In this document: positions 1 to 5,959 of the stretch, piece by piece | Position numbering within the stretch: the stretch's first letter is position 1 | How the letters are laid out: each line of letters begins with the position of its first letter | Virus genome (UHGV): UHGV-0203602 | Direction: 5' to 3' (one strand) | DNA from: a virus | DNA: 26,015 nucleotides | The notes under the pieces: generated by a model | Database searches by the model: none | Told to the model about the DNA's origin: nothing | The model's input: the letters and a program-made list of their open reading frames with translations, nothing else | Position numbers and translations under genes: made by a program

Positions 1-1385
1 GTGTTGGGTGTGTTTGGAGATGTCGGCTTAGACCACGTTCCTGTGTAATTGGCATCTGGAGCAAATGTGTTAATATCAGCATCTACAGGCATTTCGCCAC
101 GGAAACGCAGATAGGTATCAGGAGATAGGCCGATGTTGCGAGCAAAAGTTTCTTTATCTGGGATATCAGCGCCGTTAGAGTTTTTCTGTAACGCACCATT
201 CGCTTTATCTACGGTGGTTCTTAATCCCAAGAAATTGATGATATCCGCAGTTGACCCTTTCGCTAACAAGGATCTGGCCGTTTCTGTAAAATCCGTTAAT
301 CCGACTTTATTACTGCCGGTGAAATACAGGAGTTTGTTTGCCGCTGTGGTGACTGCGGCAATAGCGGTGAGTAACGGACTGAGAGGTTGTTTCTGCGCAA
401 GTTCCTCAGTAATCGTTGTTGCGAAGTTAGGGTCATTACCTAACGCCTCAGCTAATTCCGCTAAGGTATTTAACGTCTCGGGTGAAGAACCAACCAATTC
501 AGCAATCGCGTCACGCACCCAGGCCGTTGTGGAGATGCTCGTGTCATTCGAGTCCTTCGGCGGTTTTGGGGATGTCGGTTTGCCCGTAAAATTCGGCGAA
601 TGTTTATTGGCTTTTAACTGTAATTCGTCGTTCAGCTGTTTAACCGTGGACGGCGTGGCAGCCTCCGTCACGGATTCGCTAGTCAGGGTATCGTTAAGTT
701 TAACGATGCCTTTACCGATCGTACTAGCGTCAACTAAGCCTTGGGCGGCGATTTTCTCAGCACGTTGTGCGGCCGCTTCTGAGCGGGTAGCCGCGCCCTC
801 CGACGTTTCTTTATCTTTCGTGACCTGTGCAGCAATTTTCTCCACTGCACCTTTACTGGCCTCAACTGATGCCGCAGTATTTGCGACGCCGGTAGCCGTC
901 TGTTGAACTTGTCCGGCCTGTTGCGCAACCGTTTCTGCTTTCTTAGTTACATCAGCCGCCGCAGCCGTCACCGATTGTTCGCTTGCGGCGACAGCTTGAG
1001 CCTTCTCATTCACCGACACTGATACTTCGTCTACCGCCGTTTTCGCGGCTAATACTTCAGTGTGTTTTGTACCGACTTCAGTTGCTTTTTCGGTTACAGT
1101 TTGCGCTTGTTGAGCAACCGTCGCCGCAACGGTGTCAGTTTGTTGTTTTGCTGTTTCTGCTAAATTCTTTGCTTGTGTAGCCTGAGTTGCAGCTTCTTGT
1201 GATTGTGTTGCTGCTGTCTGTGCTTCAGCCACCGCATTACGTACGGTGTCAATATCCGCAATGATCTCACGGACTGGTAACTTATAATCTTTCTCATCCT
1301 TGGAGAAAAGTAAAACACCTTCACCGATATCACCGGTATATGGTCTAAGATTATGTAATCGTATTTTCTTTACCGCTTTCGCCAT
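1..1385 (-). CDS. Side tail fibre protein, lambda Stf-like; partial, C-terminus lies beyond the window start
   Basis: ATG at 1383-1385 (minus); my translation is stop-free to position 3. N-terminus MAKAVKKIRLHNLRPYTGDIGEGVLLFSKDEKDYKL, then an A/Q/T-rich coiled-coil-like region, then SPNFTGKPTSP...STTAWVRDAIAELVGSSPETLNTLAELAEALGNDPNFATTITEELAQKQPL, which closely matches the conserved central region of lambda Stf (from memory). Not in the ORF track because it runs off the edge. Confidence 0.85.
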   Translation of the reverse strand, partial: MAKAVKKIRLHNLRPYTGDIGEGVLLFSKDEKDYKLPVREIIADIDTVRNAVAEAQTAATQSQEAATQATQAKNLAETAKQQTDTVAATVAQQAQTVTEKATEVGTKHTEVLAAKTAVDEVSVSVNEKAQAVAASEQSVTAAAADVTKKAETVAQQAGQVQQTATGVANTAASVEASKGAVEKIAAQVTKDKETSEGAATRSEAAAQRAEKIAAQGLVDASTIGKGIVKLNDTLTSESVTEAATPSTVKQLNDELQLKANKHSPNFTGKPTSPKPPKDSNDTSISTTAWVRDAIAELVGSSPETLNTLAELAEALGNDPNFATTITEELAQKQPLSPLLTAIAAVTTAANKLLYFTGSNKVGLTDFTETARSLLAKGSTADIINFLGLRTTVDKANGALQKNSNGADIPDKETFARNIGLSPDTYLRFRGEMPVDADINTFAPDANYTGTWSKPTSPNTPN

Positions 1386-1463: not shown

Positions 1464-4400
1464 TTATTGCTCTGGTTTTAATGCATCGTCTTCTATCGTT
1501 AACGTAACGTCTAAGACCGCTTGACTGTGGTCAGTAATCGCTAAGTCACGATAAATATTAGCGTTGGCTCCGTAGGTTTTGTAAGTAACGTAGAGACCTA
1601 ACGCACGGAACGCTTCCCCGCTGTAGAACCCAAAAGCCATACCGTTATCGGAAGACTCTCGAGCGGCTGGAGACCACGCCCCGTTAATCGGCTTATTCGG
1701 AATTGAGGTAATCGTAAACCCTTCACCTAACTCCTTAATTGCCGCATTAACTACCTTATCGTAGTTCGGATTCGTTGCACCAGCGAGTAATGCCCAACAA
1801 CAGCCTGCTAACCACAACGCACACATATGTGCGGTGAAGTCATCTTCCACCCAAACGGGTTTATTCGGTGCTGTAGGGAACTCGTTAGGGGTGTGTCCGT
1901 TAAACCGATCCACAAACCCACCTAGCCAATTCACCCAGTTTTCAATATAGCTTGTTAACGCTTCAGGAACCTCTTTACCTCTTAGTTTCAGTTCGTACCA
2001 GCAACGACACGCCGCATGAAACGCGCGAGGTTGGTACCCTGCCCACGGATGGTCATCGCCCCAATGGAACGTTGTCCAGGTATCCGCTTCTCCGTAGCTG
2101 TAGTTGTCCCAACGGTTCCAGATATACGCCGCACAGCCAGGCCCTAATTCACCGAGTTGCTGTTGATAAGCCAACTGCGAATCGTACAAGAACTGAATCT
2201 GGTTATCTAACCACAACTTATACCGGTCGTCTTTGTGGATACTGTACATAAACGGATACTGATAACCCGGATAAGGCATCCCGTGCCAGGCACCTAACTG
2301 TTCTGAACCTTCTGAATAGTTGTTCGAGAACGGTATCGTGCCCGGACAATACGCTAACGAATCCAATCGGTAATCTTTAATCGTACAATCACCCACTTTT
2401 GCATCAAACTCGGCACCACCGCGCAAGGCAATACGGAAGGTTAAAATATAACCATCGTCTTTATTAAAGACCGGTGGAACATCGTTAATACAATAGTAAG
2501 CAAAGTGCGCATGGTCAACCGTCGTGTCAGGAAGAATCGTGACCTGATCCACCTTATCGAAATTCGGTGCTGAAGGTTCAGGGTCAGTGTCTGCGTGGTC
2601 TGGTTGATAACCGGAAAGTGTTGCATCCTCAAGATTCAACGTTACCTGACGCCATTCGTTGTTTGTGTTAGGTAACATCCACCACCAACGCCAGTTATCG
2701 CTGTCGACTAAACGCAGGTTAAAATCTGCGTCTGCACGGTAGACAATAGAAACTGGTTTTACCTTCTCTTCAGCGGTTAACCAGAACCCGATAATAAACC
2801 CGGCATCGTCATCAGGAAATTCAGCTTCTACTACAGTACCCGCGCGACCGTCGTAAATGCTATCCTCAAAACGTTCTTCCCACGTACAACCACCATAGTC
2901 CGAACACGCACGGGCGTCAGCTATCAGGTAGTCCTCCCCTTCTGGGGTGGTAATACGGGCAAGTTGGCCTAAGTCAATATCGTACTGCTTAACCGTGTTC
3001 GCTGTAGACCGAGGTAAAGTTAAACCATACCAGTTTACTTCCTCGGTATCGGCTTTCACAGGGTTAATATCTACCATCGTTCTACAGTAGACAGGATCAC
3101 CGTTCTTACAAACCCCGCCGTACGTGACACGAAGTTTGGAGTCTTTGCTAATCCTGAACCGAACCGCTTGTTGCTCCATAAAGTGCTGTACCGCTTCAGG
3201 CGCATGGATGGTAATGTCTCCATTCTCATCACGGCCGTAGGTAACACTTACGGTATCTGGGTAATCGAAGTCGTACGAAATACCATCCGTAAAAGGTGTT
3301 TCCGCAGCAGTAGAACGTCGGAAGAATTTATCTGTCGCATCAATATACGTGTACTCATGTGCTGTGTAGAAAGCACAGTCTAATGCTTGTTTGTATTTCT
3401 CTTCACCCGTGATTCGCCACAGCAAATAACAGGCGTCGATAAACCACAATTCAGCATCGGCAGCATTACCGTATTGGTTTTTCGACCCTAAGAACGGTGT
3501 GTGGACCGGACGGTTATGCCACGGTTCGTTACGTTTAAACTCGTAACCACCATGTTCAACAGGAAGTTTTACCGCGTAGTTAATTAAATAGACACCGTTT
3601 AACTGCGTGTCTTTTAACTGTACGGTACCTTTATCAGCGTCTGCTAATCCTGTCTCAATAATTTCGCTATCCTGGATTTTGTTACCCGTCCAGGCAATTA
3701 TCCAGTCAACGTCGTGTTTAGGGCCTTTTGTTGCAGAGCCGCCCCAAAGCGGGGTGTACCCTGTAGCGTTGTTTAATAACGTAGGCCAATCAACCCACGC
3801 TTTGGTCTCGTAGGCTTTATCAGGATTGGTAATAACGTGAGTTAAAACATCTTCCCAATTAATTGACCCCTCTTTGTCTTCCTTGATAATCTGTACGTCT
3901 GCGTTAATGGCACCCCAGGCAGGGTGACCACGATGCGCAAACGTAAAGGTATCCAAATACTCTCCCCAGAACGGTGCACCATGCGGTATTTTACACTGTC
4001 CATTTGTAAACCTTACAGGGACGCTTTTATACCCACCTTGGGTAGGTTCCGTAGGGTGTATTGGGTAATGTGCTAATACCGGTTCTTTCCCGTTTACCAA
4101 CCAGTTACAAATACGACGCTGGGGCGTGGTCGGGATAGGTTGTCCGACGTAGAAGTACGTATTGTACGCATCCCAGGCACGTTTCGCCGCATCTAACCAT
4201 CTTTCGTCTTTCGTTGCGATATACATGTGGCAGTAACCAATAACGTGTAACGACTGACCCTCGGTCGTCGCATCCCCGTTCGGTTGGTATTCCGCCATAG
4301 TGTCAGCAATGAAATGACGGTTATTCGACAGAACACCTTCTTCGTTTTGAATATAGTGTTCGTTGTGCGCGTCGTGAGTCGTTCCCGTATTCCGGGTAAC

Positions 4401-4469
4401 GAAGGATTGGTGACCGTAAGCTAACGATAACGCGTAGCTAATCGCGTGACGCTGAAAATGTTTTCTCAT
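1464..4469 (-). CDS. Large (1001 aa) tail-fibre-associated protein; putative carbohydrate-active / receptor-binding enzyme, family unassigned
   Basis: 3006-nt ORF lying between two genes that carry the tail-fibre N-terminal domain. Protein is W/Y/G-rich as in glycoside hydrolases or depolymerases, but no motif I can assign. Start ATG directly abuts the TAG of the upstream ORF. Confidence 0.6.
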   Translation of the reverse strand: MRKHFQRHAISYALSLAYGHQSFVTRNTGTTHDAHNEHYIQNEEGVLSNNRHFIADTMAEYQPNGDATTEGQSLHVIGYCHMYIATKDERWLDAAKRAWDAYNTYFYVGQPIPTTPQRRICNWLVNGKEPVLAHYPIHPTEPTQGGYKSVPVRFTNGQCKIPHGAPFWGEYLDTFTFAHRGHPAWGAINADVQIIKEDKEGSINWEDVLTHVITNPDKAYETKAWVDWPTLLNNATGYTPLWGGSATKGPKHDVDWIIAWTGNKIQDSEIIETGLADADKGTVQLKDTQLNGVYLINYAVKLPVEHGGYEFKRNEPWHNRPVHTPFLGSKNQYGNAADAELWFIDACYLLWRITGEEKYKQALDCAFYTAHEYTYIDATDKFFRRSTAAETPFTDGISYDFDYPDTVSVTYGRDENGDITIHAPEAVQHFMEQQAVRFRISKDSKLRVTYGGVCKNGDPVYCRTMVDINPVKADTEEVNWYGLTLPRSTANTVKQYDIDLGQLARITTPEGEDYLIADARACSDYGGCTWEERFEDSIYDGRAGTVVEAEFPDDDAGFIIGFWLTAEEKVKPVSIVYRADADFNLRLVDSDNWRWWWMLPNTNNEWRQVTLNLEDATLSGYQPDHADTDPEPSAPNFDKVDQVTILPDTTVDHAHFAYYCINDVPPVFNKDDGYILTFRIALRGGAEFDAKVGDCTIKDYRLDSLAYCPGTIPFSNNYSEGSEQLGAWHGMPYPGYQYPFMYSIHKDDRYKLWLDNQIQFLYDSQLAYQQQLGELGPGCAAYIWNRWDNYSYGEADTWTTFHWGDDHPWAGYQPRAFHAACRCWYELKLRGKEVPEALTSYIENWVNWLGGFVDRFNGHTPNEFPTAPNKPVWVEDDFTAHMCALWLAGCCWALLAGATNPNYDKVVNAAIKELGEGFTITSIPNKPINGAWSPAARESSDNGMAFGFYSGEAFRALGLYVTYKTYGANANIYRDLAITDHSQAVLDVTLTIEDDALKPEQ

Positions 4470-4931
4470 CTAGTAACCTGCTGCAAGAAGAGAACCTTTC
4501 CAGGTAGCTCCCCCATCAAGGGTATAAAGCGACAGTGTGTCTTCCGCATTTGCCGCGTAGGATAAAACTGGTTGTGCACCGTGAGGCCACTTAACATTAT
4601 CCGGCCAGGTTACTTTATTCGCCCCTGTTCCTTGCTTAAACGTTAGCATTACTTCGAAACGGGTATTTTCTGCAACGTTGGTAAGGGCTGCGAACGTCAC
4701 TGTAGTGGTGGGATCGTTTAACACCAGAATAATGTCAGTGCTGGTATTGAAATCCAACGTGGCTGCATTATTCGAACCGTTAACCGTGGTGACTGTCGCA
4801 ACCGGGGCTAACTTATCAACGTCAATTTTATATTCTTTATTGTCTTTGCTGTACAGTAACACCCCACCTTGTGGTGTGCCTGCGTAGCTATCGAGCTCAT
4901 GGAGTCTCGTCTTCTTCAGTGCTGTCGCCAT
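4470..4931 (-). CDS. Tail-fibre N-terminal-domain protein (153 aa); possible adaptor for the downstream 1001-aa protein
   Basis: Start moved from the track's GTG at 4964 to ATG at 4929-4931 (GAGG 6 nt upstream). N-terminus MATALKKTRLHELDSYAGTPQGGVLLYSKDNKEYKIDV is about 50% identical to the N-terminus of the Stf-like fibre. Confidence 0.75.
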   Translation of the reverse strand: MATALKKTRLHELDSYAGTPQGGVLLYSKDNKEYKIDVDKLAPVATVTTVNGSNNAATLDFNTSTDIILVLNDPTTTVTFAALTNVAENTRFEVMLTFKQGTGANKVTWPDNVKWPHGAQPVLSYAANAEDTLSLYTLDGGATWKGSLLAAGY

Positions 4932-5460
4932 CTGGAACCTCGAATGTAAGAACGCTATCGTCACCGATACAGAAAATTTCGTCTTCTTCGTTCGCTAACG
5001 CACGTTCAGTTTTATCAAATAACGTCACCATAAACGCATTCATCCACGCAGGTGAATCGTCAGCAACGTTAACAGCAATAGGATCGTTGCCTGAAGTAAT
5101 ATCTGAAGCGCGTAAGTCTTCAGGCTGTAAGTTCGTACCGCAGTATTCGTTTACGACGCTAAGAACATCGCGGATATTCGCTTCAGTACCGTCTAACGAA
5201 ATCAAAATAGGTTCAGACGTTAATACCTCATCGGCGTCGAGTCTATCGTAGTAGACTACAACGGACGCACCATCCGGTTTTCGGATTTTACTGATTTCGG
5301 TGATGGTGTTACGACGTGAAGTTGTTGGGGATGGGTTTGTTGCGGTTCCGCTAATACGAATTTCGTTTAGCGTAAGTTGTAACCCATTATCGTGATTGAT
5401 TAAAGCGACCACTAGCTCTGCTGAGGTCAGACTCAAATCAGGTACGTAAGATGCGGCCAC
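4897..5460 (-). CDS. Hypothetical protein (187 aa), acidic C-terminus; first gene after a terminator, possibly tail-associated
   Basis: GTG start at 5458-5460 preceded by GGAGGG (spacer 5 nt); lies immediately downstream (minus strand) of the terminator at 5476-5520. Confidence 0.65.
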   Translation of the reverse strand: MAASYVPDLSLTSAELVVALINHDNGLQLTLNEIRISGTATNPSPTTSRRNTITEISKIRKPDGASVVVYYDRLDADEVLTSEPILISLDGTEANIRDVLSVVNEYCGTNLQPEDLRASDITSGNDPIAVNVADDSPAWMNAFMVTLFDKTERALANEEDEIFCIGDDSVLTFEVPDGDSTEEDETP

Positions 5461-5584: not shown

Positions 5585-5959
5585 TTATTCGGTTAATTCT
5601 CCACACAACTCAACGTCGATACCAAACATCATTCCCACTTCTTGAAGTTTGTTCGCCAGTAAGTGACGATGACAAAACTTACCTGCGGGACAGTAACACA
5701 TCAAAACCAAGTCATCGTGTCTGAGTAACGACACTAGAACTTCGGCGTCGATATCTAACAGTCGTTCGAGTTTGTACAAATACTTTATCGTGTACTCACG
5801 TTCAGCGACAGCGTCCTGGGCAGAAGATTTATACGCCATTAGGAAATCCCAGTCGGGGGCGAGTTCCTTTCGCCCTGACTTCACAGTGATATCCACTGCG
5901 TGAAATCCTTTCTGCTTAGCTAACCGCCACTTAGCGAGTTGTAGCGTCCAGATACGCAT
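5585..5959 (-). CDS. DUF488/DUF4326-like protein (124 aa) with conserved C-x-C...C-H-R-H motif
   Basis: N-terminus MRIWTLQ... and C-terminal LVLMCYCPAGKFCHRHLLANKL resemble the DUF488 pattern (...LLCxExxPxxCHRxLxAxxL) as I recall it; TAATG coupling to the upstream gene. Confidence 0.5.
   Translation of the reverse strand: MRIWTLQLAKWRLAKQKGFHAVDITVKSGRKELAPDWDFLMAYKSSAQDAVAEREYTIKYLYKLERLLDIDAEVLVSLLRHDDLVLMCYCPAGKFCHRHLLANKLQEVGMMFGIDVELCGELTE

Follow-up and report, generated by a model that had tools for sequence, protein, structure and literature searches.

Two tail genes that meet stop codon to start codon in one reading frame raise the question of whether they are expressed as two proteins or as one. 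Such a junction lies in the UHGV virus genome UHGV-0203602, analysed here as a stretch of 26,015 nucleotides (nt), which is referred to as the window. On its minus strand, a small gene encoding a tail protein of 153 amino acids (aa) ends in TAG, and a large gene encoding a tail protein of 1001 aa opens with ATG at the next codon. The initial annotation offered three explanations, namely a split tailspike, an amber read-through fusion, or an adaptor/enzyme pair with tight translational coupling. By its sequence, the window comes from a jumbo phage that counts Salmonella phage SPN3US and Erwinia phage Asesino among its relatives. The analysis argues with good confidence that this SPN3US/Asesino-like phage carries two late tail genes as separate neighbours, zero nt apart; the genes would be coupled in translation, and the small product would serve as an adaptor. 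The separateness of the genes is evident from their real stop and start codons, from the conserved Met of the large protein and from relatives that keep the genes apart; a read-through fusion is neither needed nor selected for.

Across the boundary the minus strand reads ...GCA GGT TAC TAG ATG AGA AAA..., and since there is no spacer, the two open reading frames (ORFs) share a frame, exactly as initially annotated and as confirmed from both the sequence and the ORF table. The mechanical ORF table gives 4470..4964 (-) with 164 aa from GTG for the small gene and 1464..4469 (-) with 1001 aa from ATG for the large one; the 153-aa form corresponds to the ATG start at 4931, which gene callers also choose in four near-identical contigs. 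For comparison, 36 consecutive minus-strand junctions between 37 ORFs, hand-picked from the mechanical list, were surveyed in the window. Spacers from -14 to +2 were found in 21 of these same-strand junctions, the commonest value being -1 (eight times), and a zero spacer occurred once. The geometry of the junction carries no signal, being no more than chance would give. The stop codons of the 37 ORFs are TAA (22), TGA (8) and TAG (7), and because TAG ends seven of them, it is an ordinary stop in the window, with no sign of recoding. No tRNA gene, suppressors included, was found in the window, and a 121-nt fold at the junction was no better than that of shuffled sequence (z = -0.29). The weak Shine-Dalgarno (SD)-like AGGT ahead of the large gene (Table 1) has only GGT as its equivalent in the nearest relatives.

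Homologous loci were then compared. With the addition of 80 further loci from IMG/VR, 86 were analysed altogether, and removal of duplicates from 83 related loci left 49 distinct junctions. Their spacers are -1 (12), -8 (9), -20 (8), -4 (6) and 0 (3), with the others scattered from -40 to +13; 43 of the 49 fall between -20 and +3, so a tight junction is kept among the homologues. The frame is not kept, as the relatives' junctions occur in all three frame relations and the two ORFs are in frame in only four of the distinct junctions, below the random expectation of one in three. The upstream stops are TAA in 36, TGA in 9 and TAG in 4. The five closest relatives, one of them 95% identical in the large protein and the other four 97% identical in the small protein, all have GGT TAC TAA ATG at the same place, with amber in none of them. 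Phage PMBT28 has a zero spacer with a TAA stop, and the genes of a FelixO1-like Erwinia phage overlap by 1 nt. The Met1 with which the large protein opens does not vary among six diverse homologues, and nearly all related loci have an in-frame start candidate close to where it is expected. The two-gene layout spans SPN3US-, Asesino-, phi92-, rV5- and FelixO1-like phages, contigs of SU10-like podoviruses and small prophage-sized contigs.

The known orthologous pairs have the same arrangement. SPN3US gp123/gp124 and Asesino gp140/gp141 follow the gene order seen here (DUF7941 gene, small gene, large gene), whereas their junctions differ: that of SPN3US is TAA-GCC-ATG, in frame but ochre, and that of Asesino is TGA-G-ATG, out of frame. 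Phi92 gp140 and rV5 gp43 have the same C-terminal domain as the small protein and are directly followed by a homologue of the large one (27-42% identity). The phi92 junction is a 1-nt overlap with a strong annotated AGGAG ribosome-binding site at the place of the weak AGGT found here, and rV5 has a 1-nt spacer instead of zero. The N-terminal parts of both small homologues are unlike the one in the window, and HHpred likens that of rV5 gp43 to the part of the P22 tailspike that binds the particle (PMC3606486).

In the SPN3US virion proteome, the two orthologues are separate entries, both classed as tail proteins (PMC10052503 Table S2). For gp123 (16.5 kDa), wild-type virions yielded 16/16/23 spectra and tailless particles none; for gp124 (113.7 kDa), the counts were 186/185/159 and 8/9/3, respectively (PMC10052503 Table S2). 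The totals of 55 peptide-spectrum matches (PSM) for gp123 and 530 PSM for gp124 correspond to ~3.3 and ~4.7 PSM per kDa, similar mass-normalised counts that, as a rough estimate, are compatible with roughly equal copy numbers.

These comparisons bear directly on the two explanations that invoke a single protein. Programmed amber read-through would place a 1155-aa adaptor-enzyme fusion in the tail, in the manner of Qbeta A1, which would be the precedent, being a structural protein of the virion that arises through read-through of a stop codon. Here, in a single genome, the ORFs are indeed in frame without a spacer, TAG is followed by A, and some background read-through may occur at any TAG. The A1 extension, however, has no start of its own and its arrangement is conserved, whereas the downstream ORF here has its own conserved ATG and Met1, and both the frame and the stop codon vary: TAA replaces TAG in all five nearest relatives (95-97% protein identity), and an in-frame relation holds for just 4 of the 49 distinct junctions, with that of Asesino not among them. 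The absence of RNA structure at the junction (z -0.29) and of tRNA genes in the window, where TAG ends 7 of 37 genes, also speaks against read-through, which is left as exceedingly improbable. A tailspike split by a recent nonsense mutation in a single anchor-plus-enzyme gene has in its favour that the anchor lies in one product and the enzyme-like body in the other, and that the in-frame adjacency resembles an interrupted ORF. Against it, the two-gene layout recurs across many phage lineages with junctions in all frames, the large protein always opens with its own Met and a domain that is complete and folded forms the end of the small protein, so that this origin is hardly credible either. 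The initial annotation had proposed a search for a single fused ORF in homologous phages; none joining the small and large proteins was found in the 83 loci, in the 120 best clusters of the large family or in the 149 best representatives of the small domain, the latter taken from a search of 1.84 billion proteins. The only fusions found join the large protein to other partners, either P2 gpI or an unrelated extension of ~260 aa. Because relatives always keep two genes, an arrangement that the initial annotation had itself held to be incompatible with them, both the read-through fusion and the recent split are refuted.

The pairing itself is strongly conserved. In 83 of the 86 loci, the large gene is directly preceded by an ORF whose very C-terminus is a domain with homology to small-protein residues ~55-153, and homologues of the small and large proteins occur in 517 and 538 phage records, respectively, with near-identical genus counts. 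The upstream proteins of other lineages comprise 107-563 aa, with unrelated N-terminal parts of ~50 to ~460 residues and differing tail types. As the domain is kept in 83 of the 86 loci while the N-terminal parts vary, it is the C-terminal domain of the small protein, not its N-terminus, that tracks the large gene. In two of the three exceptions, the contig ends too near upstream of the large gene to hold a small gene. The lone locus with intact upstream sequence but without the pair (L084 2173-5736) lies on a 237-kb Goslar-like contig, where the large homologue bears the N-terminal extension of ~260 aa mentioned above, with a DUF7941 match below threshold (E 0.0036). This locus was considered as a small-large fusion and dropped, since the extension is not the small domain and no small domain is recognisable at the locus.

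In two P2-like prophage contigs (L092 5001-8294 and L093 1787-5080), the large domain stands behind Tail_P2_I, the gpI wedge, in a protein of 1097 aa. In L093 the fusion gene is flanked by gpJ and a gene for a gpH-like fibre; L092 breaks off right after its fusion gene, and no small-domain gene was found between gpJ and the gpI fusion in either contig. Judged from this domain arrangement, the gpI fusion appears to place the large protein at the baseplate periphery. An SU10-like podovirus contig (L037 381-6677), with capsid and adaptor genes of SU10 type, also carries the pair, and the next protein encoded there has a T4 Gp10_C domain, so the module is not confined to one tail morphotype.

The small protein belongs to the PHROG family phrog_9017 'tail fiber protein' (E 2e-39). 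It is 47% identical to its SPN3US counterpart by tblastn (46-47% to the upstream neighbours in SPN3US and Asesino) and 40% identical to phi92 gp140 over residues 39-152. In the AlphaFold2 monomer model, residues 1-36 are disordered, with a predicted local distance difference test (pLDDT) score <50, and residues ~45-153 form a beta-sandwich (pLDDT ~80-90). Over its first 48 residues, the small protein has 50% identity (E 1e-11) with the corresponding end of the long tail fibre encoded downstream, and the motif occurs in exactly two copies in the window, as it does in each of two relatives (L006 and L088). Such a motif would be expected of a common attachment module carried by the fibres of one phage. 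The initial annotation was right in recognising a tail-fibre motif at this N-terminus, but it overlooked the C-terminal domain, in which conservation is highest. The most conserved motif, KQGTGANKVTWP...VKW..G..PVLSY...D...DGG.TW.G, lies in that domain, which gave no confident match to Pfam or the Protein Data Bank (PDB), nor did the small protein as a whole. A profile search with the domain retrieved 10,942 representative proteins at E<=0.001, in which it is mostly C-terminal in fibre-like proteins of 110-2000 aa and sometimes in tandem copies, for example five in the 2036-aa protein P0132. The Asp-box-like SxDxGxTW motif of the domain probably explains stray 'sialidase domain' annotations in this family.

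The large protein is assigned to the PHROG family phrog_2871 'tail protein' and is 78% identical to Asesino gp141 and 72% identical to SPN3US gp124. An AlphaFold2 model built with 97 homologues (pLDDT 91.3, predicted template modelling score 0.88) is confidently an (alpha/alpha)6 glycosidase-like barrel, the fold of GH8/GH76/GH88/GH105-like glycoside hydrolases (GH), with beta-sandwich regions, and a helix of residues 2-26 begins directly at the start of the chain. The beta-rich middle, which lies between the helical segments of the barrel and whose boundaries in Table 1 are the author's reading of the secondary-structure string, matches the jelly rolls of carbohydrate-binding module (CBM) families CBM11 and CBM22 in Foldseek. 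The label 'enzyme' would follow from this predicted fold. No match was found in the PDB by sequence or by the 97-sequence profile, and the structure paper on phage Sf14 contains no protein resembling the large one. Nine acidic residues are invariant in the family (D66, E70, D338, D377, D380, D395, E432, D589 and E952). No copy of the N-terminal fibre motif was found in the large gene: tblastn of the window with the motif matches only the small gene and the fibre gene, in agreement with the initial annotation, which had described the large protein as lacking an attachment domain.

Across the 97 sequences, which come from phages of Escherichia, Salmonella, Erwinia, Pseudomonas, Acinetobacter, Shewanella and others, the mean column identity of the large family is 53%, and identities across unrelated phage groups range from 27 to 78%. 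This is unusually conserved for a protein of the tail periphery, and such conservation hints at a conserved target or at a structural role. Some homologues carry C-terminal Big_2 or other extensions. The lead that the large protein might be the Campylobacter flagellar-glycan binder Gp047 was dropped without a comparison with the Gp047 sequence, on the basis that the one 'Campylobacter phage' record inspected (A12a, 135 kb) matches in the same way as rV5-like E. coli phages, with 27% identity over the same query span.

Among the three explanations first offered, the adaptor/enzyme pair fits best, in that the linkage, the fibre motif and the fold all agree with it, while coupling and docking keep the standing of proposals. 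Ribosomes finishing the small gene would re-initiate at the adjacent ATG by termination-reinitiation coupling, the weak AGGT 6 nt upstream may help this re-initiation, and coupling would keep the small and large products in step. The small protein would then act as a short adaptor, whose N-terminal ~48 residues attach it to the tail and whose conserved C-terminal beta-sandwich holds the large protein. The latter, glycoside-hydrolase-like and with CBM-like regions, probably binds or cuts a conserved envelope glycan. We infer the adaptor role from the linkage in 83 of the 86 loci, the matching taxonomic distributions and the classification of both orthologues as tail proteins.

Both parts of this proposal have parallels. 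Translational coupling at abutting or overlapping stop and start codons is known from trpE-trpD, trpB-trpA and many phage late operons, and the small and large genes resemble such pairs in sharing a strand, with stop and start no more than a few nt apart, a weak SD sequence in the end of the upstream gene and a fixed product ratio that is likely to be needed. The commonest forms of coupled junctions are the ATGA and TAATG overlaps; unlike these, the spacer here is zero, a rarer value of the same distribution. Adaptors combined with enzymatic receptor-binding proteins are found in the SP6/K1-5 adaptor with its tailspikes, in G7C gp66-gp63.1 and in the tailspike protein (TSP) complex of CBA120. 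As in these systems, a small protein with an attachment module would present a larger, carbohydrate-active-like protein that lacks one. In contrast to them, the enzyme-like protein here is an (alpha/alpha)6 barrel instead of a beta-helix tailspike, and the contact between the two proteins is a proposed one.

Two further explanations accept separate genes and differ from the adaptor/enzyme pair in the arrangement of the proteins. The junction might reflect genome compaction only, with the small protein as an independent short fibre, its beta-sandwich as its own distal and possibly glycan-binding tip, and the large protein attached otherwise. The very large small-domain family, in which the domain is C-terminal and sometimes multi-copy, is what would be expected of a generic fibre-end or shaft domain, the Asp-box-like motif fits a glycan-binding tip, and the P2-like prophages join the large domain straight to gpI with no small-domain gene between. 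Nevertheless, the upstream gene ends in the small domain in 83 of 86 loci despite unrelated N-termini and tail types, conservation is higher in the domain than elsewhere in the upstream protein, contrary to what is usual for receptor-binding tips, and the genus counts of the two families match closely, so that compaction alone is considered unlikely. The topology might also be reversed, with the large protein as a baseplate-bound platform into which the small protein and the long fibre plug through their shared N-terminal motif. Consistent with this, the motif is common to both genes flanking the large gene, and in the P2-like prophages the large domain is joined to the gpI wedge and a gpH-like fibre comes next. 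A reversed topology leaves unexplained, however, why the C-terminal domain and not the N-terminus tracks the large gene across lineages, and the N-termini of the small homologues in phi92 and rV5 differ from the one here; this topology, too, is considered unlikely.

Several observations weigh against the adaptor/enzyme pair itself. Coupling of translation is a proposal, and the weak SD-like AGGT could support independent initiation; the contact between the small and large proteins, likewise, we infer from gene linkage and co-occurrence. With 10,942 representatives, the small-domain family greatly exceeds the 317 clusters of the large-protein family, and because of this the small domain is not exclusive to its partnership with the large protein and could be a generic fibre-end domain. 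The fold matches of the small protein are weak: the best in Foldseek are the N-terminal region of CBA120 TSP4 (E 5.7e-3) and a baseplate chain of phage KP1 (E 0.14), with none below E 0.001. The large protein has no Pfam match that would assign it to a curated glycoside hydrolase family, and its invariant acids are at most candidate catalytic residues. The 2026 cryo-electron microscopy (cryo-EM) paper on phi92 never mentions gp141, and in it the predicted gp140 misfitted the density of fibre II, which was left unidentified (PMC13450770).

The features of the locus are collected in Table 1. The small gene and the DUF7941 gene overlap over 35 nt, which is context and lies outside the junction itself. 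The DUF7941 orthologue in SPN3US, gp122, gave only 7-8 spectra and was called non-virion (PMC10052503), a call that contrasts with the PHROG label 'virion structural protein' for this family. As a candidate for the counterpart of the phi92 sheath initiator gp139, the DUF7941 protein was rejected: the two show no BLASTP similarity and only their gene positions are equivalent. On the other side of the pair, the long tail fibre matches PHROG tail fibre families with E down to 5e-55, and its counterparts in two relatives (L088 and L089) specify proteins of 1517-1540 aa that contain Phage_fiber_2 and Peptidase_S74.

Table 1. Features of the small/large gene junction and of the surrounding genes, in positions of the window.
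Feature	Position	Strand	Remarks
Stop-start junction	4467..4472	-	TAG 4472-4470, then ATG 4469-4467; from sequence and ORF table
Weak SD-like AGGT	4476..4479	-	6 nt before the ATG of the large gene, inside the terminal Gly-Tyr codons of the small gene
Small tail protein gene, 153 aa	4470..4931	-	Orthologue of SPN3US gp123, phi92 gp140 and rV5 gp43
Small protein, N-terminal ~48 residues, presumed virion-attachment anchor	4788..4931	-	Motif common to the downstream long tail fibre
Small protein, C-terminal beta-sandwich domain, ~100 residues	4473..4769	-	Motif KQGTGANKVTWP..VKWP.G..PVLSY...D...L.T.DGG.TW.G.; homologues upstream of the large gene; model
Large tail protein gene, 1001 aa	1464..4469	-	Orthologue of SPN3US gp124, Asesino gp141, phi92 gp141 and rV5 gp42
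Large protein, approximate beta-sandwich (CBM-like) region, residues ~395-700	2370..3287	-	Model secondary structure
Long tail fibre gene, 5' part	1..1385	-	Starts at 1385 and runs off the window; N-terminus paralogous to that of the small protein
DUF7941 'virion structural protein', 187 aa	4897..5460	-	Pfam PF25613, E 1.9e-20; PHROG phrog_2935
DUF488-N3a protein	5585-5959	-	Pfam E 3.9e-11; just upstream of the tail genes; gene also in SPN3US and close relatives
ORF antisense within the fibre gene	133..906	+	No Pfam or PHROG match; probably spurious

For the genome itself, the in-frame TAG-ATG is normal gene packing, and no annotation as a read-through or a fused tailspike is warranted. The small anchor protein and the ~1000-aa tail protein of glycosidase fold travel together in >500 sequenced phages, and the conserved gene pair is poorly characterised: for neither protein has a structure been solved, a Pfam family defined or a place in the virion demonstrated. 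Locating the two proteins could help to complete the baseplate models of phi92- and SPN3US-type phages and could bring to light a conserved glycan target in the envelope. A more far-reaching idea, put forward tentatively and with less than even expectation, is that the pair forms an undescribed, widely shared tail module, in which a beta-sandwich docking domain on lineage-specific anchors would mount one conserved (alpha/alpha)6-barrel glycan-processing enzyme on jumbo, rV5/phi92-, FelixO1- and SU10-like tails. If this is true, the pair could account for the baseplate-fibre density without an assigned protein in the phi92 cryo-EM study.

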